A stretch of DNA of 64,000 bases from a virus (IMGVR_UViG_3300042691_018527:22012-86011); one strand, 5' to 3'; positions 2,803 to 20,067 are shown, numbered from the stretch's first letter. Numbers and translations: made by a program. The notes: generated by a model from the sequence alone, not told the origin.

Positions 2803-3424
2803 CAAAAAAGCATTTAAAGATGATTTAGATGATTTAGAAGAATTATACGATCTTCAAATTGAAGATGAAACAGATGAAACCATAGAAGACGATGGTTTTG
2901 TTTTACCTGATTCGGAAATAGATTCATTTGAAGAAGATTCAGATGAAATATTAGAAGAAGAAGAAGAAGAAGAAAAAGAAATACAAGAACTTCCACCAAA
3001 AGTAAAAAAGAAAGCATTAAAAGAAAAATTTTACGTAGAGCCGAAATTGTTTGACGAGGAAATAATGAAATATTATGATAGTGGTGTTATGACAAACGAA
3101 CTAGCTGAGATGGTTAGTAAAATTTCACATAAACTTAGCTATGCAAGTAATTTCATCAATTATTCTTATAGAGAAGAAATGGTTGGTGACGGAGTCATAC
3201 GAATGATGAAGGCGTTGATTTCAAAAAAATATAACAGAACTAAAGGAACTAACCCGTTCTCTTATTTTACAAGAATAGCATTTAATGCTTTTAGAAATAG
3301 AATTAAAAAAGAAAAACACATACACGAAACTCACGAAAAATACAAAGAAGAGCTAATGTTCATGTCTGGTTGTGTAAGCAATTTAAACAAAAATAAAAAC
3401 GGAAAGAAAAAAAATAATTACTGA
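2783..3424 (+). CDS. gp55: late-transcription sigma factor gp55 with acidic N-terminal extension
   Basis: NFINYSYREEMVGDG and NPFSYFTRIAFNAFRNRIKKEK; upstream of gp47 as in T4-like phages. Confidence 0.9.
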   Translation: MKKKKYSKKAFKDDLDDLEELYDLQIEDETDETIEDDGFVLPDSEIDSFEEDSDEILEEEEEEEKEIQELPPKVKKKALKEKFYVEPKLFDEEIMKYYDSGVMTNELAEMVSKISHKLSYASNFINYSYREEMVGDGVIRMMKALISKKYNRTKGTNPFSYFTRIAFNAFRNRIKKEKHIHETHEKYKEELMFMSGCVSNLNKNKNGKKKNNY

Positions 3425-4458: not shown

Positions 4459-5210
4459 CAACACAAGACATTGGAATAGCCATATTAGACGTTTATACCG
4501 AGGCAGATTTATTAAATTGTTATAATAGCGTATCTGGACTTGAAAACGTTTTAATAGTTTCTAATACAAAAAATAATTTACCTGATTGTAATTCAAGAAG
4601 ATATGATAACCAAGTTCCTTTTGCAACACTTAGGAATCATGCATTGTCTCAGTTTAGATTAATGGGTTTAAAACATTTCTTTTTGATAAATTCAAACCAA
4701 ATTATTAAAAATAAAAATGTGTTTTCGGATATTATAAAAACAGCAGAGATATTTGGAACGTGGTGCATAACGGGACCATCTGAAAAATTATTGAGTATTG
4801 AAGACGATAAAACAAATACATCTTTAACTATATCTGAAAAATTAAATAGCGATTTTATTTACATATTCAATGGTATAGTTTCCAATGTTGGTTATTTCGA
4901 TGAAAGATTTTTTAACACAAAAGACTTGGATGTACTTGATTATATTTTAAGAATGAGAGAAAAAGGAGTTTATCCTGTAAAAAACTATCATCCAGTTTAC
5001 ACAGAAAACATAGATTCTTCTAATAGTTTGATTCAAAAAATAAACCATAAAGAAATGAATGATGCTGATCAAAGTGTTAATTTATCTTATGCATATTTTT
5101 TACACAAATATCAATATATGCCATCGCAAAATGACCCAGCGTCAGTATCAAAAGATGAACTTTTAAAAAATTTAGAGGAAATTCAACAAAAATACGCTAA
5201 AAATGAATAA
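4455..5210 (+). CDS. degenerate GT-A (GT2-like) glycosyltransferase paralog
   Basis: Aligns by eye to both domains of the next gene but has NSN where they have EDD; VGYFDERF. Confidence 0.65.
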   Translation: MTTQDIGIAILDVYTEADLLNCYNSVSGLENVLIVSNTKNNLPDCNSRRYDNQVPFATLRNHALSQFRLMGLKHFFLINSNQIIKNKNVFSDIIKTAEIFGTWCITGPSEKLLSIEDDKTNTSLTISEKLNSDFIYIFNGIVSNVGYFDERFFNTKDLDVLDYILRMREKGVYPVKNYHPVYTENIDSSNSLIQKINHKEMNDADQSVNLSYAYFLHKYQYMPSQNDPASVSKDELLKNLEEIQQKYAKNE

Positions 5211-6987
5211 CAAAATAGGTCTTGGTTTAATTACATGTGACAGAATTGACTTTTTTACAAAAAGTTTAAATTCTGTTTTAGCATGTTCAAAGAACATTTC
5301 AAATTTTGAATTAGTTGTAATAAATGATGGAAATGAAAAGATAAAAAGATCCGAAAATATTAAAATAATTCAAACTAATGGAAAAACTGGTGTAGGTAAA
5401 GCTAAAAACTTAGCATTAAAATATCTCATGAAAAAAGAGTGTGAGCATATTTTTTTAATGGAAGATGATATCATTATTAAAGATGAAAAAGTTTTTGATT
5501 TATACATAAACACTTCAAAAATAACTGGCATCAAACATTTAAATTATGGGTTACATGGAAATCACAATAGAGATCCACTTGGATCTCCAGTTGTAAGAAA
5601 GACAGTAACATACAAAGACAATGTTACAAAGATAAATCTATACCCAAACATATTAGGTGCATTTAGTTATTATCATATTGATTGTTTAAACAAGATTGGT
5701 TTGATGGATGAGCAATATTATAATGCAATGGAACACGTCGATCACACATATGTTGCGTTTAAAGCAGGGTTTCACCCACCATTTAGATGGTTTGCTGATG
5801 TATTTGGTTCTGAAAATTATCTAGAAGACATTGTACCAGACCATAAACAGAGTAAAATTCGTAGCGAAGAAAATTTCCAAGAAACTTTTAAAAAGGGATT
5901 AGATATTTTTATAAAAAAACATAATTTTAGTGTAATTGGAAATTACGGACCACCCGAATATCTGTATTCAGAAGAAGAGTGTCTTAAAGACTTAAAAAAA
6001 ATATGGAAGACGCACAATTCAGAAAAAAATAAAGGATATATTCAGACAATTTTAGATAGTTTCTGGACTCCAAAAGCAGATGACATAAAAAAAAATGAGA
6101 TTTTGAATAACACAGTTGAAAATATACAAGAAAAAGAACCAGAACCATTACCTGATCCTGAACCTGAAAAAAAAGAAGTAAAGATGATTAAAAAACAAAA
6201 AGTAAAACAAGGGAAGTATGGGAAAATAGGAATAGGAGTAACAACTTATAATTCTGAAGAATATTTCAAAACATTGTTTAATAGTTTATATGATTGTGAA
6301 TACCAAGAACTTGTAGTTGTTAATGGTGGAGATGAATATAAAGAAAAATATGATTGTGATTGGATACAACACAACTCTAACAACTACCCATCTGTGTGCA
6401 GAAACGACGCAGTAAATTTTTTATTAAATAGAGGATGTGATCATATCTTCTTAATAGAAGATGATATGATTATTAAAGATAAAAACATATTTCAAGAATA
6501 TATCAAAGCATCTATTAATAGCGGATTAAAATATTTTTCTTTTACTAGTATGTCATGGGAATCTGGCAAACCATTCGAAAGAACACCTAGACTGACAGTT
6601 AATTATAAAAACGGCGTAAGTGTTTCTTTTTATAGAAATATGTGCAATGAGTTTACGTATCACCATAAATCATGTTTTGAAAAAACTGGACTATATGATA
6701 CTCAATTTAGAGATCCATTTGACATAGATATGGCATATAGAGAATCTCAAACCGATTATGCTGCACCATTTTGGTGGTTTGCTGACATAACTAATGCTGA
6801 TCAATACATTCAAAACAACGAAAACGCAAAAAGCAGATTACAGTCAGATAGACCAGATGGATCAAGAGAAGAAAGAATAAAAGAACAATGGCAGTTGTTT
6901 TATAAAAAACATGGAAAACTAGTACAAGAAATACCAGATACTAACAAAGAAGATGTTGTTAAATTTTTGAAAAAAACGATGAAATGA
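5203..6987 (+). CDS. tandem two-domain GT2-like glycosyltransferase
   Basis: Two copies of KIG.G..T / VVIND(G) / HIFL.EDD / G..D with a Pro-Glu linker. Confidence 0.85.
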   Translation: MNNKIGLGLITCDRIDFFTKSLNSVLACSKNISNFELVVINDGNEKIKRSENIKIIQTNGKTGVGKAKNLALKYLMKKECEHIFLMEDDIIIKDEKVFDLYINTSKITGIKHLNYGLHGNHNRDPLGSPVVRKTVTYKDNVTKINLYPNILGAFSYYHIDCLNKIGLMDEQYYNAMEHVDHTYVAFKAGFHPPFRWFADVFGSENYLEDIVPDHKQSKIRSEENFQETFKKGLDIFIKKHNFSVIGNYGPPEYLYSEEECLKDLKKIWKTHNSEKNKGYIQTILDSFWTPKADDIKKNEILNNTVENIQEKEPEPLPDPEPEKKEVKMIKKQKVKQGKYGKIGIGVTTYNSEEYFKTLFNSLYDCEYQELVVVNGGDEYKEKYDCDWIQHNSNNYPSVCRNDAVNFLLNRGCDHIFLIEDDMIIKDKNIFQEYIKASINSGLKYFSFTSMSWESGKPFERTPRLTVNYKNGVSVSFYRNMCNEFTYHHKSCFEKTGLYDTQFRDPFDIDMAYRESQTDYAAPFWWFADITNADQYIQNNENAKSRLQSDRPDGSREERIKEQWQLFYKKHGKLVQEIPDTNKEDVVKFLKKTMK

Positions 6988-7757
6988 AAATTTCAATAGG
7001 AATTAATATACATGGCGCATATAAAAGACAAGATCAATGTATTTTTGTTTTAAAAAAACTAAAACAAAAATATCCAAACATAACGTTATATAACATCACA
7101 TTTAGTGATGAATTTAATTTTGAGAAAGAGTTCATACATTTACCATTTTTAAATAAAACAGCATCAGACGTTATAACCGATTCAAATTCCAAAAAACCAA
7201 TAGCAAATCAATTTTTTGATATTTTATCACGAACAGACTGTGATTATTTTTTATTTTTAAACAGTGACATTCTTTTAACTGAAAAGGCGCTTAAATTAAT
7301 AACAAATGATTATGATACATATTGTTTTTCAAGAACCGACGTTGTATCAACTGACAAATTATCAGAAATCGTTCCTTGGCGAATAGAAATAGCTGGGTTT
7401 GATGCATGGGCAGTTAAAAAAGAATGGTGGTTAAACAATTCAGATCATTTTAGTGATGAATACGTGTACGCAGAACACCTTTGGGATGTTTTTTTCACAT
7501 TAACAATGTTTAATAACAGTAAATGCATGTTGGGTAATAAAGAAAATTACATAATACATGAAAAGCATGAATTAAATTGGAATGAAACTTCACCAGAAGC
7601 AACACATAATAGCAATTTATGGACCAAATCTCCATACGGAGAAAGGTGGAGAAAGTTTATATACGAAAATTTAATAAAAAGACAACCCATGGGTCAATTT
7701 TTAACCCCATTAGACAACGAGACTGAATTAGAACAAACATTTTTAACGGTGAAATGA
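6984..7757 (+). CDS. GT-A fold glycosyltransferase-like protein
   Basis: YFLFLNSDILL, GFDAW and HEKH motifs; cluster context. Confidence 0.6.
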   Translation: MKISIGINIHGAYKRQDQCIFVLKKLKQKYPNITLYNITFSDEFNFEKEFIHLPFLNKTASDVITDSNSKKPIANQFFDILSRTDCDYFLFLNSDILLTEKALKLITNDYDTYCFSRTDVVSTDKLSEIVPWRIEIAGFDAWAVKKEWWLNNSDHFSDEYVYAEHLWDVFFTLTMFNNSKCMLGNKENYIIHEKHELNWNETSPEATHNSNLWTKSPYGERWRKFIYENLIKRQPMGQFLTPLDNETELEQTFLTVK

Positions 7758-8410
7758 AAATTAGCGGTTTTTATGAAAAAATATATGTCGTTCATTGGAA
7801 ACCTTTAAAAGACAGAAAAGAATATTTAGAAAAAATTTTTAAAGATCTTGGTTTAAACAAGATGGTTGTTTGGGTTGACCAGTATGAATCAGAAAAAGAC
7901 GTTAAAGATATTAAAAATCCATTTAATTTAAATTTAAAATTATTAATGGTTAATATGTCTCATCTTTTTTGTTATAAAGACCAATTAAAAAACGGATATA
8001 AAAATATTTTAATACTCGAAGATGATATTGACTTTGAACATTTAAACGTGATCGCTTATTTAAATCAAGCAGCAGAAGAGTTTCAACAATTAGATGGTGA
8101 TATTGCTTTTCTTAGTACTTGTTGTGGATTGAATGTAAAAAACATAAAACCACCACAGCTATTATATTACAATCCTAATTATATAACAAGATGTTGTGGT
8201 GCATATATTGTTAATAAAAGATGTGTTGAAAAATTAATAGAATGTGTTATAAATTGTCATGCGATAGATAGAATGTTAAACGCTCTTATACCATTAATAA
8301 ATGTTCGTTGTTTGTGGAGTGGACATCCAATAAAACAAGGTTCAGAAACTGGGAAATATACCAGTGCATTATTGGATATAAGAGACAGTGACGGTAATTA
8401 TACGCTATGA
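7754..8410 (+). CDS. GT25-like glycosyltransferase
   Basis: KIYVVH...DRKE, SHL, ILILEDD, GAYIV, AID motifs. Confidence 0.8.
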   Translation: MKISGFYEKIYVVHWKPLKDRKEYLEKIFKDLGLNKMVVWVDQYESEKDVKDIKNPFNLNLKLLMVNMSHLFCYKDQLKNGYKNILILEDDIDFEHLNVIAYLNQAAEEFQQLDGDIAFLSTCCGLNVKNIKPPQLLYYNPNYITRCCGAYIVNKRCVEKLIECVINCHAIDRMLNALIPLINVRCLWSGHPIKQGSETGKYTSALLDIRDSDGNYTL

Positions 8411-9099
8411 AATTATATACAGTTTTTACAGAATCACATTATGGGATGTTTAAAGATTATTTTATAAAAACATTTCCATTTGATTCAAATTTAGAATTAG
8501 TTGTTAAGTTCAAACCACAAGTATGTCCATCTTCAGAGTTTCAAAGCGAAGGATGGAGAGACACGATGATGTATAAAGTACAGTGTTTTATTGATGCTGC
8601 ATATGAAACAAAAGATGGTGAATGTTTTATGTTTTCTGATCCCGACATTCAGTTTTTTAAACCATTCTCACAAGATGTTATTGAACACTTGGGAGATTAT
8701 GACGCAGCATTTCAAAATGATTTTGGTGGTGGCGTAAACACTGGATTTTTTATAATGCGATCAACATCTAAGACTAGAGCTTTTTTGAAAACAGTACAAG
8801 GAAATCTTCATATGTTTCCAGAAGAACAAGTGTGTTTTAACCATCTAATACAAAATTTTAACGTATATCCAAAAATAGCTTTCCGTGCAAAGTTTTTACC
8901 AAGAGAATATTGGACTTATGGTGAATTGGCAATACAAAGAAGAACACAAGAAAACCAAGTAGGAACGTGGCAAGGACATGAAGATTTTGATTTACCAGAA
9001 AATATAGTAATTCATCATTCAAACTGGACTGTTCCGTTTTCAAATAAAATAAAACTTTTAGATGTTGTTAGAAAGAAATACAATGATAGAAAAATTTAA
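8407..9099 (+). CDS. nucleotide-diphospho-sugar transferase (GT77-like)
   Basis: FMFSDPDIQF, NTGFF, EQVCFN, HSNW motifs. Confidence 0.75.
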   Translation: MKLYTVFTESHYGMFKDYFIKTFPFDSNLELVVKFKPQVCPSSEFQSEGWRDTMMYKVQCFIDAAYETKDGECFMFSDPDIQFFKPFSQDVIEHLGDYDAAFQNDFGGGVNTGFFIMRSTSKTRAFLKTVQGNLHMFPEEQVCFNHLIQNFNVYPKIAFRAKFLPREYWTYGELAIQRRTQENQVGTWQGHEDFDLPENIVIHHSNWTVPFSNKIKLLDVVRKKYNDRKI

Positions 9100-9970
9100 A
9101 AAATATTTAGTGAAAGCACAATCACCAGCATATCCACCTTACCATACTGGACCTTATTTAGAAGAATATTTTCTATATTATTATTTTAAAAATATAGAAA
9201 AATTTAAAAATGTAAAACATCAATATATACCGGTATTATGGACTGAGTTATATCTACATGTTGCGAGTTTAGTTGATGATTTACAAAATGATTTAAATGA
9301 ATTAGATAAAGACAAGTTTTACTTTACAGTATCTCAACATGATGATGCACCTTTTCAACAACTACCACCAAATACTATTAATTTTTCAGCTGGTGGAAAT
9401 CAACCAAACACAACACCAATTCCTTTAATCTGTAGTCCAATTACAGACGTTAAAGAAGTTGAAAAGGACATATTCTGTAGTTTTGTTGGTAGTATAACAG
9501 CACCATTAGAAGGTTGGGGACTAGTTTCACATAATCTTAGAATGAAGATGTTAGAAACGCTTGTTGATAAAAAAGAATATGTATTAAAACCAAAATCTTG
9601 GACAAATGAAGTTAAAAAAGACCGTCAAGATATGTTCTTGGATTTAACAGCAAGAAGTAAATTTACATTATGTCCTCGTGGATATGGAGCAACTAGCTTT
9701 AGGTTATACGAAGCAATGCAGTTAAAATCAGTGCCAGTTTACATATATTACGAAAAACCACACTTACCTTTTGTTGATAGAATAAACTGGAATGATATTT
9801 GTGTTTTAATTAACATTGATGATATTGGAAAATTAGATGATACATTAAAAAATATTTCAAATGAAAAGTATGCAAATATGGTTAAAACCATGCAAGAAAC
9901 ATATCAAAAATACTTTACACTAGAAGGTATGTGTAATGGTATACTGGAAACACTAGAAAATATAAAATGA
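9062..9970 (+). CDS. exostosin-like (GT47) glycosyltransferase; likely start at 9083
   Basis: SFVGS and SKFTLCPRGYGATSFRLYEAM..VPV motifs. Confidence 0.85.
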   Translation: MLLERNTMIEKFKKYLVKAQSPAYPPYHTGPYLEEYFLYYYFKNIEKFKNVKHQYIPVLWTELYLHVASLVDDLQNDLNELDKDKFYFTVSQHDDAPFQQLPPNTINFSAGGNQPNTTPIPLICSPITDVKEVEKDIFCSFVGSITAPLEGWGLVSHNLRMKMLETLVDKKEYVLKPKSWTNEVKKDRQDMFLDLTARSKFTLCPRGYGATSFRLYEAMQLKSVPVYIYYEKPHLPFVDRINWNDICVLINIDDIGKLDDTLKNISNEKYANMVKTMQETYQKYFTLEGMCNGILETLENIK

Positions 9971-10734
9971 AAAAAATATTATTTGTTATAGCAAAATACA
10001 ACGATGGTAGACAAAAAATATTTGATGAAATTATTTCGCCTAGAAATAAACATTACTGTGATAAACATGGATTTAAATATGTTGAAATTAAAAATGAAAC
10101 GCAGTTAACTTTGTTCAGAAACAATCCAACTTGGTGGAAATTTACAATAGTTAAAGATTTAATTGATAGTAATAAAGTAACTGACGGTGATATTATTGCT
10201 CACATAGACGCGGATATGTATTTTGTAAAGGATGATGTTTCAATAGAAACACCAAAGTCATTTTCTTATTCAATTGACAGTGGTAACACTCATTGTATGG
10301 GGTGGTACAGTTTAAAGATAAACGAATGGACAAAAAATCTTGTAAAAAATATCTTATCCGATGAAAGATTCAATCGTTTAAATGATAAAGTAACGATACA
10401 CGATAGATTTAAAACATATTCTAGTTTCTGGCATGACTTTAGAGAACAAGCAAGTTGGTATAGTTTGGCAGGAATAAAAAGACATTCTGATAAACCATTT
10501 TGGGAATATCCAAATAATGGTTTTTATAGTCAATATGACGAAAATGTTATATACACAATCGATGAACTCAAAGAAAACGTTGAAATATTTAAAACCAGCT
10601 TCAATGTAACAGAATGGGTTGGTGAAAGTTCTTGTGAATTTAACATCAATAACAATGTTAAAAAAGAAGATGTTGTCATAAGACACTTTGCCGGTGGACA
10701 AGACTGGAATAATGTTAGAAATTGGATTCAGTAA
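9967..10734 (+). CDS. GT34-like (MNN10/GMA12-type) glycosyltransferase
   Basis: NKHYCDKHGFKY, W.K, HIDAD, EQAS, HFAG motifs. Confidence 0.7.
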   Translation: MKKILFVIAKYNDGRQKIFDEIISPRNKHYCDKHGFKYVEIKNETQLTLFRNNPTWWKFTIVKDLIDSNKVTDGDIIAHIDADMYFVKDDVSIETPKSFSYSIDSGNTHCMGWYSLKINEWTKNLVKNILSDERFNRLNDKVTIHDRFKTYSSFWHDFREQASWYSLAGIKRHSDKPFWEYPNNGFYSQYDENVIYTIDELKENVEIFKTSFNVTEWVGESSCEFNINNNVKKEDVVIRHFAGGQDWNNVRNWIQ

Positions 10735-10738
10735 TGTA

Positions 10739-10766
10739 TTGATTTAAAAAAAAATTATTATACACT
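10739..10766 (+). promoter_or_regulatory. sigma70-type promoter inside the glycan island
   Basis: TTGATT-N16-TACACT, 10 nt before ATG 10777. Confidence 0.5.
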
Positions 10767-10776
10767 AATATATATT

Positions 10777-11451
10777 ATGAGCATAAACGAAATAACAAAT
10801 TTTTTAAATATTAAAAATTTTAATTTTGCAGAAGGTGGAGTATTTCACGAAGAAGGGCAAGTTGATATATTTTTTAATATATTAAAAAACATAAACACAG
10901 AAGAACCTAAAATGTTTGAATTGGGTAGTTATGAATCGTTTTATTCTGTTGTTTTTAATAAATTTTTCCAAAATAAAAACGTAACAAATGTTTGTTTAGA
11001 AATATGTAAGCCATGTTTAGACATAGGTGTTCAAAATTCAACCAATAATGAATGTAAAAACATGAGTTTTGAATATGCTAGTGTTGGCGAAACAAATTTA
11101 GGGATTTATAACGGAACCACACAATTTAAAGATTTAGAAATATCAGATAAAAAACTAACAGTTAAATATCTATTTGATTTCTATAAAATAGACGTATTAG
11201 ATGTATTACACGTAGACGTTCAAGGTTCAGAGGGGTCGGTTTTAGAAGAAATACAAAAAGAAAAATTGAAAATTAATTACTTTTTTATTAACATACACGA
11301 TGACAGTATAACAAATAATTTTTACGGTTATAGTGTATATGAAAAATGTAAACAAATATTAGATACTTTTGATGTCGATTATATCTATGATAATAGAATT
11401 TATGGTGGATATGGTGACGGCTTAATAGTAGCTAAAACTAAAAAAATATAA
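10777..11451 (+). CDS. FkbM-like SAM-dependent methyltransferase
   Basis: MFELGS and DVLHVDVQGSE motifs. Confidence 0.75.
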   Translation: MSINEITNFLNIKNFNFAEGGVFHEEGQVDIFFNILKNINTEEPKMFELGSYESFYSVVFNKFFQNKNVTNVCLEICKPCLDIGVQNSTNNECKNMSFEYASVGETNLGIYNGTTQFKDLEISDKKLTVKYLFDFYKIDVLDVLHVDVQGSEGSVLEEIQKEKLKINYFFINIHDDSITNNFYGYSVYEKCKQILDTFDVDYIYDNRIYGGYGDGLIVAKTKKI

Positions 11452-11459
11452 AACACACA

Positions 11460-12365
11460 ATGAAAAAAATTAAAATAAACTTTGTAGATTTTTGGCCCAA
11501 TCTTATTAAAGATGACAATTATTTTTATAATTTGTTAAAAACAAAATATGATGTAGAAATAGATGAAGTAAATCCTGATGTTTTGTTTTTTTCGGTTGAT
11601 TATGGTAATGCCAGAGAAAGAGATCGTTATAAAAATTGTTTAAAAGTGTTTTATACGGGAGAAGATGCAGCCCCCAACTGGAATGAATGTGATTTAGCAT
11701 ACACATTCAGACACTCGTCCGACCCTAGAGAATATAGACTTCCGCTATGGGCATTATACTTTAATTGGTTTAACAGACCATATAACGATGATAGAGATCA
11801 AGCATTGTTATGGGACATGAAAGACTTTTTAAATAAGCCCACACAGGTTAATAAACCAAATTTTTGTGGATTTATTAATATGCAACCTAAAGGAAAACGA
11901 GTTGAGTTTGTTCCAAAACTAATGAATTACAAAAAAGTAGATTGTGCTGGTCCGTTATACCACAATACACCATATGTTATTACAGATAGTCGTGGAAATT
12001 TAGCTAGAGGTGATCAAAAATATAAAGTTGATTGGTTATCTTCTTATAAGTTTTCAGTTTCAATGGAAAATTGTTGTTCGCTAGGATATTGTACTGAAAA
12101 AATAATACATGCTATGTTTGCCAACTGTATTCCAATTTATTGGGGTTCAGAATCTGTTAATCAAGATTTTAATGAAAATTCTTTTATAAATTGTCATAAT
12201 TTTTCTTCTGATGAAGAAGTTATAGAAAAAATTAAAGAACTAGATTCAGATAATAGAAAATATGCAAAAATGTTAATGGGAGAACCTTGGTTTAATGATA
12301 ATAAAATACCAGATTTTGTTCAACCTGATTCTGTTTTGACTTTACTTTCAAACAAATTAGATTAA
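11460..12365 (+). CDS. GT10 alpha-1,3/4-fucosyltransferase-like glycosyltransferase
   Basis: FYTGE and YKFSVSMEN...GYCTEKI..A....IPIYWG signature. Confidence 0.88.
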   Translation: MKKIKINFVDFWPNLIKDDNYFYNLLKTKYDVEIDEVNPDVLFFSVDYGNARERDRYKNCLKVFYTGEDAAPNWNECDLAYTFRHSSDPREYRLPLWALYFNWFNRPYNDDRDQALLWDMKDFLNKPTQVNKPNFCGFINMQPKGKRVEFVPKLMNYKKVDCAGPLYHNTPYVITDSRGNLARGDQKYKVDWLSSYKFSVSMENCCSLGYCTEKIIHAMFANCIPIYWGSESVNQDFNENSFINCHNFSSDEEVIEKIKELDSDNRKYAKMLMGEPWFNDNKIPDFVQPDSVLTLLSNKLD

Positions 12366-12374
12366 TATATATTT

Positions 12375-12503
12375 ATGAGTACAGATTTTGATGAAAATGA
12401 TTTTAGAAAATATAAAAATGATTGTAGTGTTTTTATAGAAACTGGTTCTAATATTGAGTACTATAAATCTTCAAACGAAAACGTTTTCTTAATTTCTGTG
12501 TAA
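12375..12503 (+). pseudogene. 42-codon internally deleted methyltransferase remnant
   Basis: Manual translation MSTDFDENDFRKYKNDCSVFIETGSNIEYYKSSNENVFLISV*; VFIETGS resembles SAM motif I; TAATG coupling to next gene. Confidence 0.5.
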
Positions 12504-13213
12504 TGAAACCAGATAAGATATACATTGTTCATTATACAAAATTAAAAGACAGATATGATACTTTAGTTCCGTTTTTAGAAAACTGCAAAATACCTTATGA
12601 GTTTATAACTGAATTTGACCAAGAAGTTTTAGACGAGAAAGTATTAAATAATTTTTATAATCCAGACAAACAAAAATTTGAAAATAAAATTAAAAACTTA
12701 TGGGACTTGAACATCCATAAGTTTCGTCATTTAAATAAACCAGAAATTTCATGCACAATAAAACATCTAGTTGCAATTAAAAAATTATCACAAGAATGTA
12801 AAAATTTTGGTCTAATCTTAGAAGATGACGTTTTGTTTTATGATAATTTTAATAAAAATTATAAAACATATATTGAAAACACACCAGCAGATTGGGATTC
12901 AATTTTTTTGGGTGACGGTTGCGGTATAAATTTTCAAAATGAATCTATAATAAAAAGTAAAAGAATAAACGATAATTTATTTTTAATGCCACATCCAGCA
13001 ACTAACTGCGCAGAGGCATATTTACTAAAACCAGATATAGCTAATAAAATTTATGAATCTTCTATCCCGTTTCAGTTAGTATCCGATTGGGAATTAGCGT
13101 ATCAGTTTTTTAAATTAGATGCTAAAGTTTATTGGTGGTATCCATCCTTAGTAACACAAGGATCTAGAAATGGAAAATATAATTCAACGTTAGATTTAGG
13201 TCAACGACTATGA
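12503..13213 (+). CDS. GT25-like glycosyltransferase
   Basis: KIYIVH...DR, EISC..KH, LILEDD, AYLL motifs. Confidence 0.82.
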   Translation: MKPDKIYIVHYTKLKDRYDTLVPFLENCKIPYEFITEFDQEVLDEKVLNNFYNPDKQKFENKIKNLWDLNIHKFRHLNKPEISCTIKHLVAIKKLSQECKNFGLILEDDVLFYDNFNKNYKTYIENTPADWDSIFLGDGCGINFQNESIIKSKRINDNLFLMPHPATNCAEAYLLKPDIANKIYESSIPFQLVSDWELAYQFFKLDAKVYWWYPSLVTQGSRNGKYNSTLDLGQRL

Positions 13214-14298
13214 AAAAAATAGCATTTATTAAATTCGCAGGAATGGCATCTGGTGGTATTGAAAAATATCTTCAAACCATTGCAATCTTGTTAAAACAAC
13301 AAAATCACCACGTTGATTTTTATTACACAAACGCAGCACCCTTTACGAATGGTTGGAAACACCCAGAAAATAGTGAAGAAAGAAGAAAATACGTAAAAGC
13401 TAACGGAATTAATACAATTGAAGTTCATGTTGATTACAAGATAGGAGAAAGAGAGCCTTATGAATGGGTTGGTACTAATTTTTGGGATATTTTTGATGAA
13501 AAAGAATACGATTTTATACAAACCGGAAGAGGTGGATATCCAGAATACCCATTTAATTTAATTAATGAATGTAGTATAATTGACAGTATTCATAGTTTTA
13601 CTGGAGAAGACAAACCAAATATCAAGAAAGCAATATTATTATGTAAATGGCAAGCTGATAGATGGGCAAATAGCGGAGGAAACATTAATAAAGCTGAAAT
13701 AATACCATCGATTGTATATGTTCCAGAGAAAAAGAAATCATCACTAAGAGAAGTATTAAACATTCCAGATGATATGTTCATATATGGTTTTCATCAAGCA
13801 AATAGAGAAGATATTTTTTCACCAGTATCGTTATTATCATATGCTCAAGTACAAAACGACAAAACATGTTTTGTTATATTGGGTGGAAGTCAACAACACG
13901 TTAACTTAGCAAAACAATTAAACTTAAAAAACATGTATTTCTTAGAATTTACAAGTTCTACCGAAGATATTCATGATTTTTTATCCGGAATAGATGTTTT
14001 TGCACACGCAAGATCTGATGGTGAAGTATGTTCTGCTTCGATTATAGAAGCAATGTATCACGGAAAGCCAGTTATAAGTCATCCAGCATTAAACATGGGA
14101 CATGCTGAACAAATAGATGGGTGTGGAAAGGTTTGCAATTCTTTAGAAGAATATGTAAACGAAATGAAACTTTTAAAAAATGAAAAAAATTATTATTCTG
14201 AAAAATCAGAAAAAACATTAGATCGTTATAATGAAAAATACAATTATAAAAAAGTTGAAAAGGCTATAATAGACTTATATAACAATATTGAAAATTGA
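13210..14298 (+). CDS. GT4-like (GT-B) glycosyltransferase
   Basis: GGIEKY and DVF...DGEVCSASIIEAMYHGKPVI (EX7E) motifs. Confidence 0.85.
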   Translation: MKKIAFIKFAGMASGGIEKYLQTIAILLKQQNHHVDFYYTNAAPFTNGWKHPENSEERRKYVKANGINTIEVHVDYKIGEREPYEWVGTNFWDIFDEKEYDFIQTGRGGYPEYPFNLINECSIIDSIHSFTGEDKPNIKKAILLCKWQADRWANSGGNINKAEIIPSIVYVPEKKKSSLREVLNIPDDMFIYGFHQANREDIFSPVSLLSYAQVQNDKTCFVILGGSQQHVNLAKQLNLKNMYFLEFTSSTEDIHDFLSGIDVFAHARSDGEVCSASIIEAMYHGKPVISHPALNMGHAEQIDGCGKVCNSLEEYVNEMKLLKNEKNYYSEKSEKTLDRYNEKYNYKKVEKAIIDLYNNIEN

Positions 14299-14328: not shown

Positions 14329-14994
14329 ATGACATTAGAACAAAAAATTGACGAAATCGAATATCGATTAAAAACAGAATCAAAGATAATGGCAAAACAT
14401 GATTACCATGAAACGTTTCATTTAGCTTGTACGGAATATGTTAAACTAGATGGTCTTTGGATGGAATTTGGTGTATTTACTGGTAGGAGTATTGAACAAT
14501 TTTCAAGAAAAGCACCACTCATATATGGTTTTGATTGTTTCGATGGACTACCAGAGTATTGGGACGAAAATAATCCAAAGGGTTGTTATGGTTTAGGTGG
14601 TCAAATTCCACCAGGTTATATCGTTGGTGAAAATCATTCAATGTTTAATAGCAATCTTCCAACAAATTGGAAGCCTTGGCCAGAAAATGTTAAATTGATT
14701 AAAGGGTATTTTGAAGATACACTTCCAGTTTTTTTAAAAAAATTTGAAGGTGATGTTTCTTTTGTACACATTGATGGTGATTTATATTCATCCGCAAAAA
14801 CAGTTTTGGATAATTTAAAACCAAGATTTAAAAAAGGTTCTATATTATTATTCGATGAAATTGTAGATTATGAAGCTTACAGAGAACATGAAATAAAAGC
14901 ATTTGCCGAGTTCCTATTGGATACTGGGTTTGATTATACACCACTTTTGTATCAAAATTTAGGATATAGTCAAGGTCTATTTGAACTAAAATAA
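14329..14994 (+). CDS. TylF/Methyltransf_24-like O-methyltransferase
   Basis: MEFGVFTGRS, GFDCFDGLPE, KGYFEDTL, HIDGDLYSS, FDE motifs. Confidence 0.85.
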   Translation: MTLEQKIDEIEYRLKTESKIMAKHDYHETFHLACTEYVKLDGLWMEFGVFTGRSIEQFSRKAPLIYGFDCFDGLPEYWDENNPKGCYGLGGQIPPGYIVGENHSMFNSNLPTNWKPWPENVKLIKGYFEDTLPVFLKKFEGDVSFVHIDGDLYSSAKTVLDNLKPRFKKGSILLFDEIVDYEAYREHEIKAFAEFLLDTGFDYTPLLYQNLGYSQGLFELK

Positions 14995-14995
14995 A

Positions 14996-15634
14996 ATGTA
15001 TTCATTAAACAACTTGGATGAAAAATTATTAAAATATTTAAATTTTAATAATGGATTCTTTATAGAAGCTGGTGCAAATGATGGCATTAGTCAGTCGAAT
15101 ACTTTGATGTATGAGCAGAAATTCAATTGGTCTGGTTTACTAGTTGAACCTTCTTTCATAAAATATGAAGAATGTAAGAAAAATAGACCAAACTGCATAG
15201 TTGAAAACTATGCACTTGTTAATGAAAATTATAAAGAGAAAACAATTTACGGTGATTTCGATTACTTTGAAAAACACCAGTCTTTATGTGGTCAAATTAC
15301 AAGAAAAGAAGAATATTTCGATGATGATCTAAAGTGGAACCTAGACGAAAAAAATAAAAACAGCAAGATAATAGAAGTTCCTTGTGCAACACTAAACTCT
15401 ATTTTAGAAAAACATAACATAAACCATATAGATTTTTTTAGTTTGGATGTTGAAGGTTATGAAATAGAAGTTTTAAGCGGCTTTAATGTTCAAAAATACA
15501 AACCAAAATATTTTTTAATTGAAACTGGAAACGAATACAGATATAATACTATCTGTTCTTATATGTTTTCTAGAAATTATAAAATATTAGAAAACATATC
15601 GGACGTTGACACACTTTTTACATATGAAAACTGA
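14996..15634 (+). CDS. FkbM family methyltransferase
   Basis: FIEAGANDG..SNT, LVEP, IDFFSLDVEGYE motifs. Confidence 0.9.
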   Translation: MYSLNNLDEKLLKYLNFNNGFFIEAGANDGISQSNTLMYEQKFNWSGLLVEPSFIKYEECKKNRPNCIVENYALVNENYKEKTIYGDFDYFEKHQSLCGQITRKEEYFDDDLKWNLDEKNKNSKIIEVPCATLNSILEKHNINHIDFFSLDVEGYEIEVLSGFNVQKYKPKYFLIETGNEYRYNTICSYMFSRNYKILENISDVDTLFTYEN

Positions 15635-16187
15635 AAAATATATATTGAAATATTTTAGTGAAATTAAACAAATAATAGATTCTATAAAGATAGCTGAAAT
15701 AGATAATTTTATTAACGTAATAAAAAATATAAAACAATCTAATGGTAGACTTTTTGTTTTAGGTGTTGGTGGAAGTGCTGCAAATGCAAGCCATGCTGTT
15801 AATGACTTTAGAAAAATCCTTAATATCGAAACATACGCTGTAACAGATAATGTTTCAGAATTAACGGCTAGAATAAATGACGAATCATGGGAAGTATCAT
15901 ATTTAAATTGGTTAAAAGGAAGTAAACTTTCATCTAAAGATGCCATTTTGGTTTTTTCTGTTGGTGGTGGATCACAAAACACATCTCAAAATCTTGTAAT
16001 GGCAATGAAATATGCTAAAAAGATGAATAGTAAAATACTCTCCGTTGTTAGTAAAGATGGTGGATATGCTAAAAAATTATCAAATGCATGTGTATTGATT
16101 CCTGTTATTGATGAAAAAAGAACAACCGCACATGCCGAAGAATGGCAAGGAATAATATTGCACTTAGTAGTAAATTATTTTTTATAA
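15606..16187 (+). CDS. gmhA: SIS-domain phosphoheptose isomerase (GmhA-like); likely start at ATG 15624
   Basis: GVGGSAANASHAVND, LTARIND, FSVGGGS.N, HAEE motifs. Confidence 0.8.
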   Translation: MTHFLHMKTEKYILKYFSEIKQIIDSIKIAEIDNFINVIKNIKQSNGRLFVLGVGGSAANASHAVNDFRKILNIETYAVTDNVSELTARINDESWEVSYLNWLKGSKLSSKDAILVFSVGGGSQNTSQNLVMAMKYAKKMNSKILSVVSKDGGYAKKLSNACVLIPVIDEKRTTAHAEEWQGIILHLVVNYFL

Positions 16188-16192
16188 TATAA

Positions 16193-16768
16193 ATGAACAA
16201 AGTATTCATAGATTGTGGGTCTAATAAAGGACAAGGGTTTCGTTCATTTATTGAAAAATATAATATAGACGAATCTTGGATAATTGAATTATATGAACCA
16301 AATCCACTATGTGATTTAAAAAACAATATAGCTGATTTAAATAATTCTTTAAACATATCAATATATGATTGTGCTATATTTGATTACAATGGAAAAATAA
16401 AATTTTCTCAGTTTTTAGAAAACGACGAAGGTTCATCGGTAAATTGTTTAATGTCAAAAGGTGTATGTAGTGATGTAAATCATCCGTCTTATAGAAAGCA
16501 TGACACAATAATAGAAGTTGAATGTAAAGATTTGTCTGATGTATTGAGCAGATATAATAAAAATGATTTCATTGTAGTTAAACTTGACATAGAAGGTGCA
16601 GAATTTTCAACATTAAGAAAGTTATTAAAAACAAATTCAATTGAAAAAATTAATGACTTATGTGTTGAATGGCACACGGCATATGTAAATAACGAAGATG
16701 ATTCATCATGCAATGAATTAAAAACAAAAATAACAGAAAAAGGAATAAACTTATATGAATGGCATTAA
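16193..16768 (+). CDS. FkbM family methyltransferase
   Basis: FIDCGSNKG, YEPNP, KLDIEGAE, VEWH motifs. Confidence 0.85.
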   Translation: MNKVFIDCGSNKGQGFRSFIEKYNIDESWIIELYEPNPLCDLKNNIADLNNSLNISIYDCAIFDYNGKIKFSQFLENDEGSSVNCLMSKGVCSDVNHPSYRKHDTIIEVECKDLSDVLSRYNKNDFIVVKLDIEGAEFSTLRKLLKTNSIEKINDLCVEWHTAYVNNEDDSSCNELKTKITEKGINLYEWH

Positions 16769-17462
16769 TATATACGCAGACACGTCGAATATTAAAGAAA
16801 TATTCGACATATACGAAAACAACAAACACATTACTGGATTTACAACAAATCCAAGTTTAATGAAAAAGGCGGGAATAACTGAGTACATTCCCTTCATTGA
16901 GGAAGTTACTAGTAAAATTTCAGATTTACCATTTTCATTTGAAATTTTTGCCGATGAACTAAATGAAATGGAGTATCAGATTAAAAAGATATCCGAGTTT
17001 GGACAAAACATATACGTTAAAGTACCAATAACAAACACAAAAGGTGAAAGCACTGTTCCTTTAATTGAAAAAATGTCAAGCGAGGGAATTAAAATCAATG
17101 TAACTGCTGTTTTTACAAAAAACCAAGTAGAAAATTTACTTAAAGATTTAATTAACACAAGAACACCAATGATAGTTTCTATTTTTGCTGGAAGAATTGC
17201 GGATACTGGTGTTAATCCGTGTCCATTAATTGAAGAAACGTCAAATTTGACTAGACCAACTGGTTTTATTAAAACATTATGGGCTAGTACTCGCACTATA
17301 TATAACGTTTACGAAGCACAAAATTCAAAATGTGATATTATAACCGTTACACCAGACTTAATACCTAAGTTAAATCTTAAAGATAAAAATTTAGATGAAT
17401 TTTCTTTAGAAACTGTTAAAATGTTTTATAACGACGCTATAAACGTTGGTTATAAACTATGA
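16755..17462 (+). CDS. tal: transaldolase (short TalC-type)
   Basis: GFTTNPSLM, YVKVP (Schiff-base Lys), INVTAVF, SIFAGRIAD motifs. Confidence 0.92.
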   Translation: MNGINIYADTSNIKEIFDIYENNKHITGFTTNPSLMKKAGITEYIPFIEEVTSKISDLPFSFEIFADELNEMEYQIKKISEFGQNIYVKVPITNTKGESTVPLIEKMSSEGIKINVTAVFTKNQVENLLKDLINTRTPMIVSIFAGRIADTGVNPCPLIEETSNLTRPTGFIKTLWASTRTIYNVYEAQNSKCDIITVTPDLIPKLNLKDKNLDEFSLETVKMFYNDAINVGYKL

Positions 17463-18442
17463 TATTAAGTAGAACACCTTTAAGAATTACATTAGCTGGA
17501 GGCGGAACAGATTTACCTAGTTTTTATTCTAAAAATGAAGGATTTGTTGTGTCAATGGCAATCAACAAGTATATTTATTTAACTTTTAAAGAAGATTTTT
17601 TCGAGACAGATTTAAAATTAAGATACTCACACATAGAAATTGTTAAGAGTGTATATGAATTAAAAAACCATAGAGCAAAGGAAGCTCTTTTATTGCATAA
17701 TATTAAAGATAGTTGTGAAATTAATTCTTGTGCTGATTTACCCTCAAACACAGGACTCGGTTCATCTGGTAGTTTTTTAGTTGGTTTGTTAAATTTGGTT
17801 AGAGAATACAAAAGATTAAACACAGAACCTAAAATTCTTGCAGATGAAGCATGTGATATTGAAATTAATCGTTTAAATGAACCAGTTGGTAAACAAGATC
17901 AATACATTGCTGCTTTTGGTGGACTTAGAATATTTGAAATAGATAAAAATGGAAACGTTTCAGTTAAAAATTTAGAAATTAATCAAAACACACTCAAAGA
18001 ATTAATATCAAATACTTGTATTTATTTTTTGAATATTAAAAGAGATGCATCTGAAGTTTTAGTCGATCAAAAAAATTTAAAAGGAAATTCCGAAGAATTA
18101 TTAAAAATAATCAAAGAACAAGCATATCAAACAGTTGAATATTTAAAAAATTCAGATCTGGATTCATATGGTAAAATAATGGATGACTATTGGAATCTAA
18201 AAAAACAGTTATCAAATAAAATATCTGTTCCAATAGTTGATGAAATATATGAAACAGTAAAAAAAGATTTTAATGTTCTTGGAGGAAAAATAATAGGTGC
18301 TGGTGGTGGTGGTTTTTTAATGTTATATTGCAACAAAAATCATTTAAAACTAGATGAATTTATGAAATCGGCTGGATATTCTAGATTACATTTCAATATA
18401 GATAACACAGGTTCTACAATTTTAGGAAATTTTTCTTGTTAA
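17459..18442 (+). CDS. hddA: D-glycero-D-manno-heptose-7-phosphate kinase (GHMP family, HddA-like)
   Basis: PLRITLAGGGTD, GLGSSG, GKQDQY.AAFGG, GAGGGGF motifs. Confidence 0.85.
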   Translation: MILSRTPLRITLAGGGTDLPSFYSKNEGFVVSMAINKYIYLTFKEDFFETDLKLRYSHIEIVKSVYELKNHRAKEALLLHNIKDSCEINSCADLPSNTGLGSSGSFLVGLLNLVREYKRLNTEPKILADEACDIEINRLNEPVGKQDQYIAAFGGLRIFEIDKNGNVSVKNLEINQNTLKELISNTCIYFLNIKRDASEVLVDQKNLKGNSEELLKIIKEQAYQTVEYLKNSDLDSYGKIMDDYWNLKKQLSNKISVPIVDEIYETVKKDFNVLGGKIIGAGGGGFLMLYCNKNHLKLDEFMKSAGYSRLHFNIDNTGSTILGNFSC

Positions 18443-18443
18443 C

Positions 18444-19178
18444 ATGATATATTGCTTTGATTTAGATAATACTTTATGTTTAACTGAACATAAAAAATAC
18501 GCAGATGCAACACCAATTTTAAATAGAATACAACGAGTAAACGAGTTGTATGATAAAGGTGATTATATAAAGATATACACCGCAAGAGGAATGACAGAAT
18601 TCTCTGGTTGTCTTCCTAAAATATTAGACAAATATTGGGTAATAACAAAGAACCAATTAACAAATTGGGGCGTAAAACACCATGAATTGATATTAGGAAA
18701 ACCATCATATGATTTTTTTGTAGACGATAAAGCATGTCACAGTGATTTTTATTTTAAACCTTTGAATAGAACATATGGTGTAATAATAGGATCTTTTGAT
18801 GTTATACACCCTGGTTATGTAAAAGCATTTAGAGAAGCAAAGGAACACTGTACACATCTTACAGTTTTTTTACACGAAGACCCATCAATTGATCGACCAA
18901 ATAAAATCAAACCGGTTTTGTCGGTTAAAGAAAGAACAGAAATATTATTGGCAATCAAATATATTGATGATATTATACCATATAAGACAGAAGAAGAACT
19001 TCTATCTTTATTAGAACAAAATTTAGACATGATCAATATTAGATTTGTTGGAGATGATTACGAATTTAAAGATTTTACGGGTAAACATCTTAATATACCA
19101 ATACACGTATTAAAAAGAGATCATGGATGGAGTTCAACAAAATATAAGAATTTAATTTATGAACAACTCAAAAAGTAA
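18444..19178 (+). CDS. fusion of a HAD phosphatase and a HIGH-type nucleotidyltransferase (TagD/HldE-C-like)
   Basis: N-terminal DLDNT...YTARG...GKP...DDK; C-terminal GSFDVIHPGY...KER...GDDY...SST. Confidence 0.85.
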   Translation: MIYCFDLDNTLCLTEHKKYADATPILNRIQRVNELYDKGDYIKIYTARGMTEFSGCLPKILDKYWVITKNQLTNWGVKHHELILGKPSYDFFVDDKACHSDFYFKPLNRTYGVIIGSFDVIHPGYVKAFREAKEHCTHLTVFLHEDPSIDRPNKIKPVLSVKERTEILLAIKYIDDIIPYKTEEELLSLLEQNLDMINIRFVGDDYEFKDFTGKHLNIPIHVLKRDHGWSSTKYKNLIYEQLKK

Positions 19179-20067
19179 TATAGTAGTAACCGGTGGATGT
19201 GGATTTATAGGAAGTCATTTGGTTGATGCGCTAGTAGATGATTATATTGTTTATGTTATTGATGATGAATCAGCAGAAGCAAATGATGTTTTTTATAAAA
19301 ATAAAAAAGCAAAATACATAAAAGAAGATATTTGTAATGCTGATAAGCTAAATTCTTCAATATTTAAAAATACAAAAGCTATATTTCATTTAGCAGCAGA
19401 ATCTAGAATTATACCATCAATTGAAAATCCGATAAAAGCAACAATGTCAAATGTTGTCGGTACCACTTCTCTTTTAAATTTATGTAAAAAATATAATATA
19501 CAAAAATTTATTTATTCATCAACCTCCGCAGCATATGGATTAAAAGCAGATATACCAACTGATGAAAACAATCAAATTGATTGTTTAAATCCTTACTCTG
19601 CTACTAAATTTGCTGGAGAAGAAATGATAAGAATGTTTACTAAATTATATAAGGTAGATTCTTGCATTTTTAGATACTTTAACGTGTTTGGGGAAAGATC
19701 ACCAACCAAAGGTTTATATGCGCCGGTTGTTGGTATATTCTTAAACCAATATAAGAATAAACAAAAACTCACTGTGGTTGGCACAGGACAACAAAAAAGA
19801 GATTTTGTACATGTTAGCGATGTTGTTAATGCTAATTTACTAGCATTAAATTATAAAAAAGCATTAAATGGAAATGTTTTTAATATTGGTAGCGGAAAAA
19901 ACTACTCAATAAACCAAATAGCAAGAATGGTAGACAAAAATATAAAATATATACCTAGTCGCCAGGGTGAATGTAAAAACACTCTAGCTGATATTACAAA
20001 AGCAAAAAAAATATTGAAATATTCACCAAAAATTGATATAAAAGATTGGATTAAAACACAAAAATAA
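19159..20067 (+). CDS. NAD-dependent NDP-sugar epimerase/dehydratase
   Basis: GGCGFIG, HLAA, YSATK (YxxxK), RYFNVFG, RDFVHV motifs. Confidence 0.92.
   Translation: MNNSKSNIVVTGGCGFIGSHLVDALVDDYIVYVIDDESAEANDVFYKNKKAKYIKEDICNADKLNSSIFKNTKAIFHLAAESRIIPSIENPIKATMSNVVGTTSLLNLCKKYNIQKFIYSSTSAAYGLKADIPTDENNQIDCLNPYSATKFAGEEMIRMFTKLYKVDSCIFRYFNVFGERSPTKGLYAPVVGIFLNQYKNKQKLTVVGTGQQKRDFVHVSDVVNANLLALNYKKALNGNVFNIGSGKNYSINQIARMVDKNIKYIPSRQGECKNTLADITKAKKILKYSPKIDIKDWIKTQK

Follow-up and report, generated by a model that had tools for sequence, protein, structure and literature searches.

A phage gene cassette with a fused HAD phosphatase-nucleotidyltransferase and its putative role in nucleotide-heptose synthesis

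Gene content of the locus

Here we describe a group of putative sugar-activation genes at positions 15606-20067 of a 64,000-nucleotide stretch of viral DNA (IMGVR_UViG_3300042691_018527:22012-86011; the whole stretch is hereafter called the window), one of which fuses a HAD phosphatase to a HIGH-fold nucleotidyltransferase. An initial annotation made from the nucleotide sequence had read five enzymes in this interval (a GmhA-like isomerase, a transaldolase, an HddA-like GHMP kinase, the fusion, and an epimerase) as a complete but hybrid pathway to a nucleoside diphosphate (NDP)-heptose, and all five are there, each on the + strand, in open reading frames (ORFs) that follow one another closely or overlap. 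Head to tail, the interval (28% G+C; window, 26-34%) encodes a SIS-family isomerase, an FkbM methyltransferase, the transaldolase, the GHMP kinase, the HAD::transferase fusion, and a short-chain dehydrogenase/reductase (SDR). The FkbM gene (16193-16768) was missing from the annotation's list, and two further methyltransferases lie upstream (14329-15634). The pairing of an HddA-type kinase with a HIGH-fold HPGY transferase fused to a HAD other than GmhB is borne out by family models and PDB matches. The interval most likely serves a phage glycan island as its module for activating sugar. The reconstruction draws on gene content, homologies, synteny, domain fusions, and catalytic-motif conservation, from which the chemical steps, sugar, nucleotide, anomer, and acceptor are predicted.

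The isomerase gene (15606..16187, +; Pfam SIS_2, E 5.9e-8), for which an ATG at 15624 is the likelier start, encodes a protein clearly homologous to GmhA: 10/10 of its PDB matches are phosphoheptose isomerases, the best being 1tk9 (E 1.4e-8). The FkbM-family methyltransferase gene (16193..16768, +; PF05050, E 6e-13; TIGR01444, 65.8 bits against a cut-off of 37.7) lies between the isomerase and transaldolase genes. The transaldolase (16755..17462, +) is of the staphylococcal type and exceeds the cut-off of TIGR02134 (288.5 versus 281.95 bits, residues 4-234). A locus of a Pelagibacter genome (L010) encodes a near-canonical GmhA (188 bits), transaldolase, two methyltransferases, PfkB, and rfaE domain II (160 bits), and continues with a methyltransferase, an ORF without family, and a small HAD of the type found in the fusion. 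In three viral loci (L074, L075, L077) a transaldolase likewise lies near HAD and transferase genes, the order in L074 being GT9, HAD, RpiB::transferase, aldolase, PfkB, cupin, and transaldolase in its Pfam annotation. Given this recurrent adjacency to heptose genes, it is plausible that the transaldolase supplies sedoheptulose-7-phosphate, a role to which these two independent settings lend moderate support.

The kinase (17459..18442, +) has HddA (NF049969) as its best NCBIfam match, and its top four PDB matches are all HddA-type enzymes (4n3o, E 4e-33; 3k85; WcbL 4usm and 4usk). Neither PfkB genes nor genes of the NTP_transferase fold (HddC-like) were found in the searched 86-kb IMG/VR virus record behind the window, which is estimated to be ~40% complete. 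Five cassette-bearing records that are 63-89% complete contain PfkB in 0/5 and NTP_transferase in 1/5 cases (only G003, the record of L014, the nearest relative of the window locus). Since such genes are absent from the 86-kb record and rare in the five fuller ones, the GHMP kinase appears to have no other phage-encoded partner. Just downstream of the cassette in L014 (9296-10663), at the place occupied by gp46 in the window, lies a 455-residue HAD_2::NTP_transferase fusion.

The last gene of the interval (19159..20067, +; Epimerase, E 9e-55) encodes a GalE-like extended SDR of the NDP-sugar 4-epimerase type. Its PDB matches to the GalE-type 4-epimerases 6dnt (177.6 bits) and 4zrm (172.8 bits) far exceed those to HldD structures (81-82 bits), and it scores 174.6 bits against the GalE model and 138 bits against the HldD model TIGR02197, below the latter's cut-off of 274.6.

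The fusion protein

The fusion (18444-19178, +; 244 residues) consists of a HAD phosphatase domain of the AfhF/1xpj type (18444..18767, +; residues 1-108) followed by a HIGH-fold nucleotidyltransferase domain (18768..19178, +; residues 109-244; PF01467 CTP_transf_like, E 6e-11). Its AlphaFold model (mean pLDDT 90.3, pTM 0.58) is confident inside the domains and unreliable in their relative orientation. Of 1365 candidates from a word-indexed homologue search with the fusion, 1208 reached E <= 0.001; the 120 best, each covering at least 93% of the query, were aligned with the window protein (n = 121) to assess conservation. In a profile search of 1.84 billion representatives, 19,779 proteins reached E <= 0.001 and 208 reached E <= 1e-30, both numbers taking in single-domain relatives. 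Viral members make up 98-100% of the Atlas clusters that represent the fused form.

The HAD domain bears a DxDxT motif and matches TIGR01689 (EcbF-BcbF, 'capsule biosynthesis phosphatase') at 44.5 bits (cut-off 162); the nine NCBIfam families listed for the fusion at E <= 0.01 do not include a GmhB model. Residues 3-108 align by phmmer with PDB 9iqw (E 3.5e-14), whose title in Foldseek is 'phage HY126 encoded D-arabinose 1,5-diphosphate phosphatase AfhF', and the domain also matches 1xpj (E 4.4e-7). The AfhF-type fold is assigned by Foldseek with a probability of 1.00, and HAD motifs I-IV are intact: D8, T10, K86, and D95 are conserved in 121/121 sequences, D6 and T46 in 120/121. AfhF is described as stripping the 5-phosphate from arabinose-1,5-bisphosphate in a phage pathway of isomerase, kinase, phosphatase, and transferase (PMC13326640), a step that by analogy would correspond exactly to that of GmhB. 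Homologues of the AfhF-family HAD are widespread, with 390 phage records (177 from Escherichia phages) containing one, mostly under the label 'phosphoheptose isomerase', which PHROG 1238 bears as well; in view of the HAD motifs and the AfhF structure match, this label looks wrong.

The transferase domain carries the motifs GSFDVIHPGY, in which HPGY replaces HxGH, and RDHGWSST. In HldE of E. coli and in three RfaE2 proteins from plasmids, the first motif reads H(A/P/L)GH and the position equivalent to R225 holds F, L, or a non-Arg residue; the window protein departs from the combination of HxGH and (F/L)xxGxSTT in both motifs. H122, G124, and R225 are present in all 121 aligned sequences, P123 in 118, and Y125 in 119; this near-invariance makes signatures of the clade out of HPGY and of the Arg that opens R-x-H-G-W-S-(T/S)-T. 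Foldseek ranks TagD first among structures related to the C-terminal domain (TMt 0.82-0.83), followed by the Fom1 cytidylyltransferase, HldC (0.65-0.68), and 3glv. NCBIfam scores cannot separate a TagD from an HldC lineage (46.0 bits for TagD TIGR01518, cut-off 165.4, versus 46.9 for rfaE_dom_II).

A phylogeny of 35 transferase domains, with three PGAP-named plasmid TagD proteins, three plasmid RfaE2 proteins, and E. coli HldE as references, gives three groups. One, the HldC group, joins the HldE/RfaE2 references with transferases that neighbour PfkB (Pelagibacter L010, viral L074, and S-SM2); a second is a TagD clade (support 100/99) that excludes the phage clade; and a third (99/97) is a separate phage clade that holds the window transferase. 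The third comprises stand-alone HxGH enzymes (Cr30, a Vibrio phage, L066, and L070/L072) and the HPGY fused clade (95/87), and the branch uniting it with TagD is weak (54/85). The transferase domain, being placed in a phage clade of its own, is thus neither a TagD nor an HldC member; HldC-type grouping with a PfkB partner is not seen, the domain lying in a separate clade and PfkB being absent from the record.

Conservation of the cassette and its domain fusions

With the fusion as query, 69 viral loci were recovered, 29 of which have HAD and transferase in one ORF (including at least three pairs of apparent duplicates: L025/L026, L029/L030, and L033/L034). Within 6 kb of the fusion, 28 of these 29 loci have a GHMP kinase, 27 have a GmhA-like SIS, and 25 have the SDR (E <= 1e-41); the SDR lies immediately 3' of the fusion in 25/29, and the exceptions include one locus cut by a contig end (L036). 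The commonest gene order is kinase-isomerase-fusion-SDR. The window and L014 have the order methyltransferase-isomerase-methyltransferase-transaldolase-kinase-fusion-SDR. The cultured cyanophage SynMITS9220M01 carries the same four genes side by side (genes 204-207), the fusion of which is 46.5% identical over 100% of the query and annotated as 'hypothetical protein'; the announcement of that genome names the kinase, isomerase, and epimerase as heptose-related lipopolysaccharide (LPS) genes (PMC7378029). The arrangement is thus not unique to the window; it is a common phage cassette that has already gone unrecognised in a published cyanophage genome.

Further fusions occur within the transferase clade. 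In an uncultured jumbo phage (LR756511), a GHMP kinase and an HPGY transferase share a single ORF (L088:4029-5405), and this transferase falls inside the HAD-fused clade; an SDR orthologue (E 6e-87) comes next, and HAD and SIS genes were not found within ~5 kb. Among the profile matches, Pfam annotation shows SIS::transferase proteins in P0151 (HPGY) and P0178. HAD::transferase fusions occur in both orders, the reversed one (transferase::HAD) in P0126, P0170, and P0180; P0147 joins a PNK3P/Hydrolase_like (HAD-IIIA-type) HAD to the transferase, P0135 is a GT2::HAD::transferase, and P0128 a HAD::transferase::TylF methyltransferase tridomain. Other architectures are transferase::cupin, UDP-glucose dehydrogenase::transferase, and transferase::HAD::Stealth (P0196). 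A search for longer homologues gave 2 proteins. In P0121, a single metagenomic sequence from one contig that may have arisen through faulty assembly or a frame error, an HLGY transferase with 60% identity to that of the window follows an N-terminal GT4-like part homologous (E 2e-9) to the C-terminal half of the protein encoded at 13210-14298. Taking these fusions together, all other activities of the pathway proposed below occur fused to the transferase clade somewhere.

In eight further members of the clade the partner is a cREC_REC 'cyclic-phosphate processing receiver' (P0171, P0175, P0192, P0212, and P0269), a SET domain (P0209), or a HAD (P0213 and P0195), joined in P0213 by a P-loop AAA_33 kinase; a role in activating sugars is not obvious from such architectures. 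Given the cREC_REC, SET, and P-loop kinase partners, the transferase clade is not limited to one use.

Proposed pathway

On balance we regard as probable a four-step nucleotide-heptose pathway that uses a non-orthologous kinase, phosphatase, and transferase, is fed by the transaldolase, and serves the glycosyltransferases of the surrounding island. The transaldolase would raise the supply of sedoheptulose-7-phosphate, after which (i) the GmhA-like isomerase would convert it to heptose-7-phosphate, (ii) the HddA-like GHMP kinase would phosphorylate C1 to yield heptose-1,7-bisphosphate, (iii) the AfhF-type HAD domain would strip the distal 7-phosphate, a task carried out elsewhere by GmhB, and (iv) the fused HIGH-fold transferase would combine heptose-1-phosphate with a nucleoside triphosphate (NTP) to give NDP-heptose. 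The GalE-like SDR could then epimerise this product and the interleaved methyltransferases, whose recurrence hints at a methylated heptose, could O-methylate it, and it would finally be consumed by the soluble glycosyltransferases of the island. With respect to the nucleotide, an Arg five residues before STT ('STTR5') is described as permitting the use of CTP or UTP by heptose transferases (commentaries on Tang et al.). R225 of the window fusion sits at this position, and the same Arg is found in the TagD sequences fetched; an invariant R225 at the TagD/'STTR5' position makes CTP or UTP a reasonable guess and suggests that the transferase may use one of them.

The initial annotation is thus partly supported: its anatomy and pathway logic are right, its chemistry is a prediction, and the epimerase assignment is doubtful. 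Its heptose logic gains from synteny, the fusions within the clade, and homology of the HAD to AfhF, and is held back by the family scores given below and by chemistry that is predicted. Its view of the transaldolase as the source of sedoheptulose-7-phosphate gains from the recurrent adjacency described above and loses from the rarity of that gene near other fusions.

Evidence weighing against a heptose product

A number of observations weigh against this pathway. Transaldolase excepted, the heptose-family scores are all far below curated cut-offs: the best NCBIfam matches of the SIS protein are GmhA models at 42-43 bits (cut-offs 209-276; TIGR00441, 41.6 bits versus 209.45), the kinase reaches 147 bits against NF049969 over residues 2-308 (cut-off 600), and the transferase reaches only the aforementioned 46.9 bits against rfaE_dom_II (cut-off 181.5), compared with 160 bits for the L010 protein. 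The second His of the transferase's HxGH is a Tyr. The catalytic triad of the cassette isomerases is D/E/H, that of GmhA being E/Q/H, which is described as the conserved triad with Glu65 and Gln172 in E. coli (PMC4697000): the positions of these two residues hold Asp and Glu in 25/25 cassette isomerases (window 15606-16187 and the SIS genes of L001, L012-L035, L056, L062, and L079) and Glu and Gln in 4/4 canonical GmhA proteins (E. coli, L010, and two from NeuB contexts). The cassette proteins retain H61 and H180 and form a distinct subtype with a co-varying active-site change; the window protein also preserves N93-D94, the serines of the phosphate loop, and the GGS motif.

Gene distribution provides further points of this kind. 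A transaldolase is near the fusion in only 1/29 other fused viral loci (L014). Close orthologues of the SDR (E ~1e-90) also occur in NeuB contexts (L055, L063, and L064), and the small HAD is found in NeuB/CMP-synthetase cassettes (L006, L039, L041, L043, L055, and L066) as well as in a TET/JBP-TAGT DNA-glycosylation locus (L070), so that neither the small HAD nor the SDR is heptose-specific. The place of the SDR in the pathway is therefore doubtful, the protein being GalE-like rather than HldD-like and having orthologues in NeuB cassettes, and the enzyme may act at C4 of UDP-hexoses in general instead of epimerising a heptose. GT9 heptosyltransferase was found in 0/26 cassette records, most of which are fragments, and only in 2 PfkB-type records, a result that does not discriminate between sugars.

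Anomeric specificity adds to these difficulties. HddA/WcbL kinases are described as yielding the alpha-1,7-bisphosphate (PMC4691232), and the HIGH-fold heptose transferases reported so far make beta-linked NDP-heptoses according to commentaries on Tang et al. Thus, if the pathway operates as proposed, either the kinase or the transferase must differ in anomer from its relatives. One tentative way of reconciling these features, to which we give appreciably less credence than to the pathway itself, is a third, phage-borne nucleotide-heptose route in which an alpha-specific GHMP kinase feeds the Tyr-for-His transferase, giving a CDP- or UDP-alpha-heptose or its C2/C4 epimer, O-methylated for phage-directed glycosylation, with the fused HAD as the 'missing' viral heptose phosphatase. 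The C2/C4 epimer would arise via the D/E/H isomerase variant and the GalE-like SDR. We know of no characterised pathway that makes such a CDP- or UDP-linked alpha-heptose or C2/C4 epimer.

Alternative functions

The same enzyme logic could act on another ketose or aldose phosphate (hexose, pentose, or octose), in which case the product would not be a heptose nucleotide. The low family scores and the D/E/H triad of all 25 cassette isomerases are consistent with such a substrate, as is the activity of the HAD's closest solved relative on arabinose-1,5-bisphosphate; phages are reported to make UDP-arabinose by the same four-step logic (PMC13326640), and transaldolase also yields fructose-6-phosphate. 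We nevertheless think this alternative unlikely, given that all ten PDB matches of the SIS protein and the top four of the kinase are heptose enzymes, that isomerase comparisons gave no KdsD-type or PGI-type signal, and that hosts already activate hexoses via mutases, leaving little for a phage to gain.

More unlikely still, in our estimation, is that the activated sugar goes onto modified DNA bases, as in the arabinosylation of RB69 and HY126, rather than into a surface or virion glycan. Membership of the HAD in the AfhF family would fit a DNA role, as would the position of the island inside a replication/recombination module, the occurrence in T4-like locus L070 of a related solo transferase beside TET/JBP, TAGT, a 480-residue nucleotidyltransferase, and a HAD, and the presence in the record of a dNMP kinase gene (40482-41081) and a thymidylate-kinase-like gene (G000:C1:17733-18380), which might hint at non-canonical nucleotides. 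Set against this, a base-modifying enzyme of the thymidylate synthase family was not found in the 86-kb record, some 40% of the genome; the scans of window ORFs reported no match to TET/JBP or TAGT; and ~9 glycosyltransferases of LPS/glycan type plus sugar methyltransferases exceed the needs of known DNA sugar decorations. With so many glycosyltransferases and sugar methyltransferases, and of such types, a surface or protein glycan is a better fit than a DNA role. The L070 locus itself (1975-6432), next to UvsX, encodes a TET/JBP oxygenase, the 480-residue NTP-transferase protein, a HAD, a TET-associated glycosyltransferase, and a stand-alone phage-clade transferase, and is probably a DNA hypermodification module.

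That the fusion is instead a TagD-like or alditol-phosphate cytidylyltransferase making CDP-glycerol or a CDP-polyol, with the HAD supplying the phospho-alcohol and the isomerase and kinase unrelated, is very improbable: TagD is the closest solved fold, the R-x-x-G-x-S-T-T Arg is common to the TagD sequences fetched, and clade member P0196 is fused to a Stealth sugar-phosphate transferase, but the TIGR01518 score falls far short of its cut-off, TagD's own 100/99 clade leaves the phage clade outside, the window ORFs scanned yielded no teichoic-acid genes, and SIS and GHMP fusions to the clade together with fixed synteny favour a shared pathway. CDP-6-glucitol (PMC10918830) was considered as a precedent for a CDP-polyol and set aside as a loose analogy only, its cytidylyltransferase (PF01128) having a different fold.

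Genomic setting of the cassette

PHROGs matches indicate that the source virus is a T4-like myovirus: the window encodes a UvsW-like helicase, a gp55-like late sigma factor, gp43 polymerase, UvsX, gp41, and gp32, together with terminase, sheath, tube, and baseplate proteins. Its gp43 polymerase is only ~30% identical to cyanophage and Cr30 polymerases. Genes for gp47/SbcD (3424-4458) and gp46/SbcC (20074-21873, directly after the SDR), both assigned by PHROGs and adjacent to each other in T4, are here separated by 15.6 kb of tightly packed or overlapping ORFs on one strand, and the heptose-type interval occupies the 3' end of this island. The island encodes, by Pfam, ~9 soluble glycosyltransferases (GT2, two GT25, Nucleotid_trans, GT47-like, GT10-like, and GT4) and five or six methyltransferases; lipid-carrier, flippase, and polymerase genes were not seen in the PHROGs and Pfam scans made of it.

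The upstream part of the island (4455..13213, +; Pfam, PHROGs, and ORF calls), which begins right after gp47, encodes a double GT2-like protein, two GT25 proteins, a Nucleotid_trans, a GT47-like and a GT10 fucosyltransferase-like protein, one weak FkbM-like methyltransferase, and several ORFs without family. It is followed by a GT4-like glycosyltransferase (13210..14298, +; Glycos_transf_1, E 1.7e-10), a candidate user of the activated sugar, by a TylF/Methyltransf_24-type (sugar O-) methyltransferase (14329..14994, +; Pfam TylF, E 3e-10), an orthologue of which (E 5e-82) sits before the SIS gene in L014, and by an FkbM-family methyltransferase (14996..15634, +; PF05050, E 5e-21). Between gp46 and the DNA polymerase, a 436-residue protein (21903-23213) has a PHROG glycosyltransferase match (E 1e-20), and no Pfam family matched it. 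A homing-endonuclease-like ORF (281-718, -) upstream of UvsY matches homing-endonuclease PHROGs, the top PHROG being labelled 'NAD synthetase'.

The T4 late-promoter motif TATAAATA has 7 matches in the window, compared with 14 expected by chance, and 0 in the island, and therefore gives no usable evidence on timing. Contigs of 11 sequencing runs, none of them flagged as a possible source, contain 55-88% of the sampled words of 15606-20067, and no RNA run was listed among those with the stretch. The 11 runs come from 10 studies with the labels freshwater, lake water, plankton, aquaculture, or fungus metagenome, a hint that fresh waters harbour this phage recurrently. Its 28% G+C and a gene order like that of Pelagibacter allow a guess at a freshwater SAR11-type host.

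Comparison with known systems and implications

Each of the known routes shares part of its logic with the cassette. The four-step conversion of sedoheptulose-7-phosphate is common to it and the ADP-L-glycero-beta-D-manno-heptose pathway (GmhA, HldE or HldA+HldC, GmhB, HldD), as are a GmhA-family isomerase, a HIGH-fold nucleotidyltransferase, and an SDR neighbour. The window differs from that pathway in that its kinase is GHMP rather than PfkB, its phosphatase AfhF-type rather than GmhB, and its SDR GalE-like rather than HldD, in that its transferase, a member of another clade, has HPGY and replaces the F/L of HldE by an Arg, and in that no GT9 was found in the 26 cassette records. The HddA/HddC (alpha) route likewise has an HddA-type GHMP kinase and a GmhA-like isomerase, whereas the window has no HddC (NTP_transferase fold) and no GmhB match, and places a HIGH-fold transferase at the last step. 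Like the cassette, the UDP-arabinose pathway of phages HY126, RB69, and DLP3 is phage-encoded and runs in the order isomerase, anomeric kinase, distal phosphatase, and transferase; it employs an arabinose-5-phosphate isomerase, the AfhE kinase/transferase, and the AfhF phosphatase, the last of which is homologous to the window HAD. Unlike in that pathway, the isomerase of the window is GmhA-like rather than KdsD-like, the kinase GHMP rather than APH-like, and the transferase HIGH-fold rather than RmlA/GlmU-like, and the phosphatase, not the kinase, is fused to the transferase.

Among phage genomes, SynMITS9220M01 has the same cassette as the window without the interleaved transaldolase or methyltransferases, whereas S-SM2 (T4-like gene clusters 304-308) and S-CAM3 encode a PfkB kinase, a cupin, and a HAD that stands alone and bears the wrong label 'phosphoheptose isomerase'. 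For heptose nucleotidyltransferases (HENases), commentaries on Tang et al. (Science 2024) describe mono-, kinase/-, and isomerase/kinase/-transferase architectures and report viral heptose enzymes; one of them states that the phosphatase is absent in viruses. A phosphatase::transferase with a non-GmhB HAD is not in the list given in these commentaries, R225 of the window matches the position of the HENase 'STTR5' Arg, and the roles of CDP- and UDP-heptose are given there as unknown.

The arrangement is probably a variant form of nucleotide-heptose synthesis, uncharacterised although common in aquatic phages. Nucleotide-heptoses are bacterial surface building blocks and potent innate-immune agonists. 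The cassette adds a fourth transferase architecture and offers a candidate viral heptose phosphatase, of AfhF type, fused to or beside the transferase, and its HAD domain corrects the widespread 'phosphoheptose isomerase' misannotation of this small protein. Because an alpha-route kinase and a HIGH-fold transferase occur together here in nature, the cassette raises the question of which anomer and which nucleotide are made. More broadly, the locus points to aquatic T4-like phages bearing large, self-contained islands for the building of glycans.

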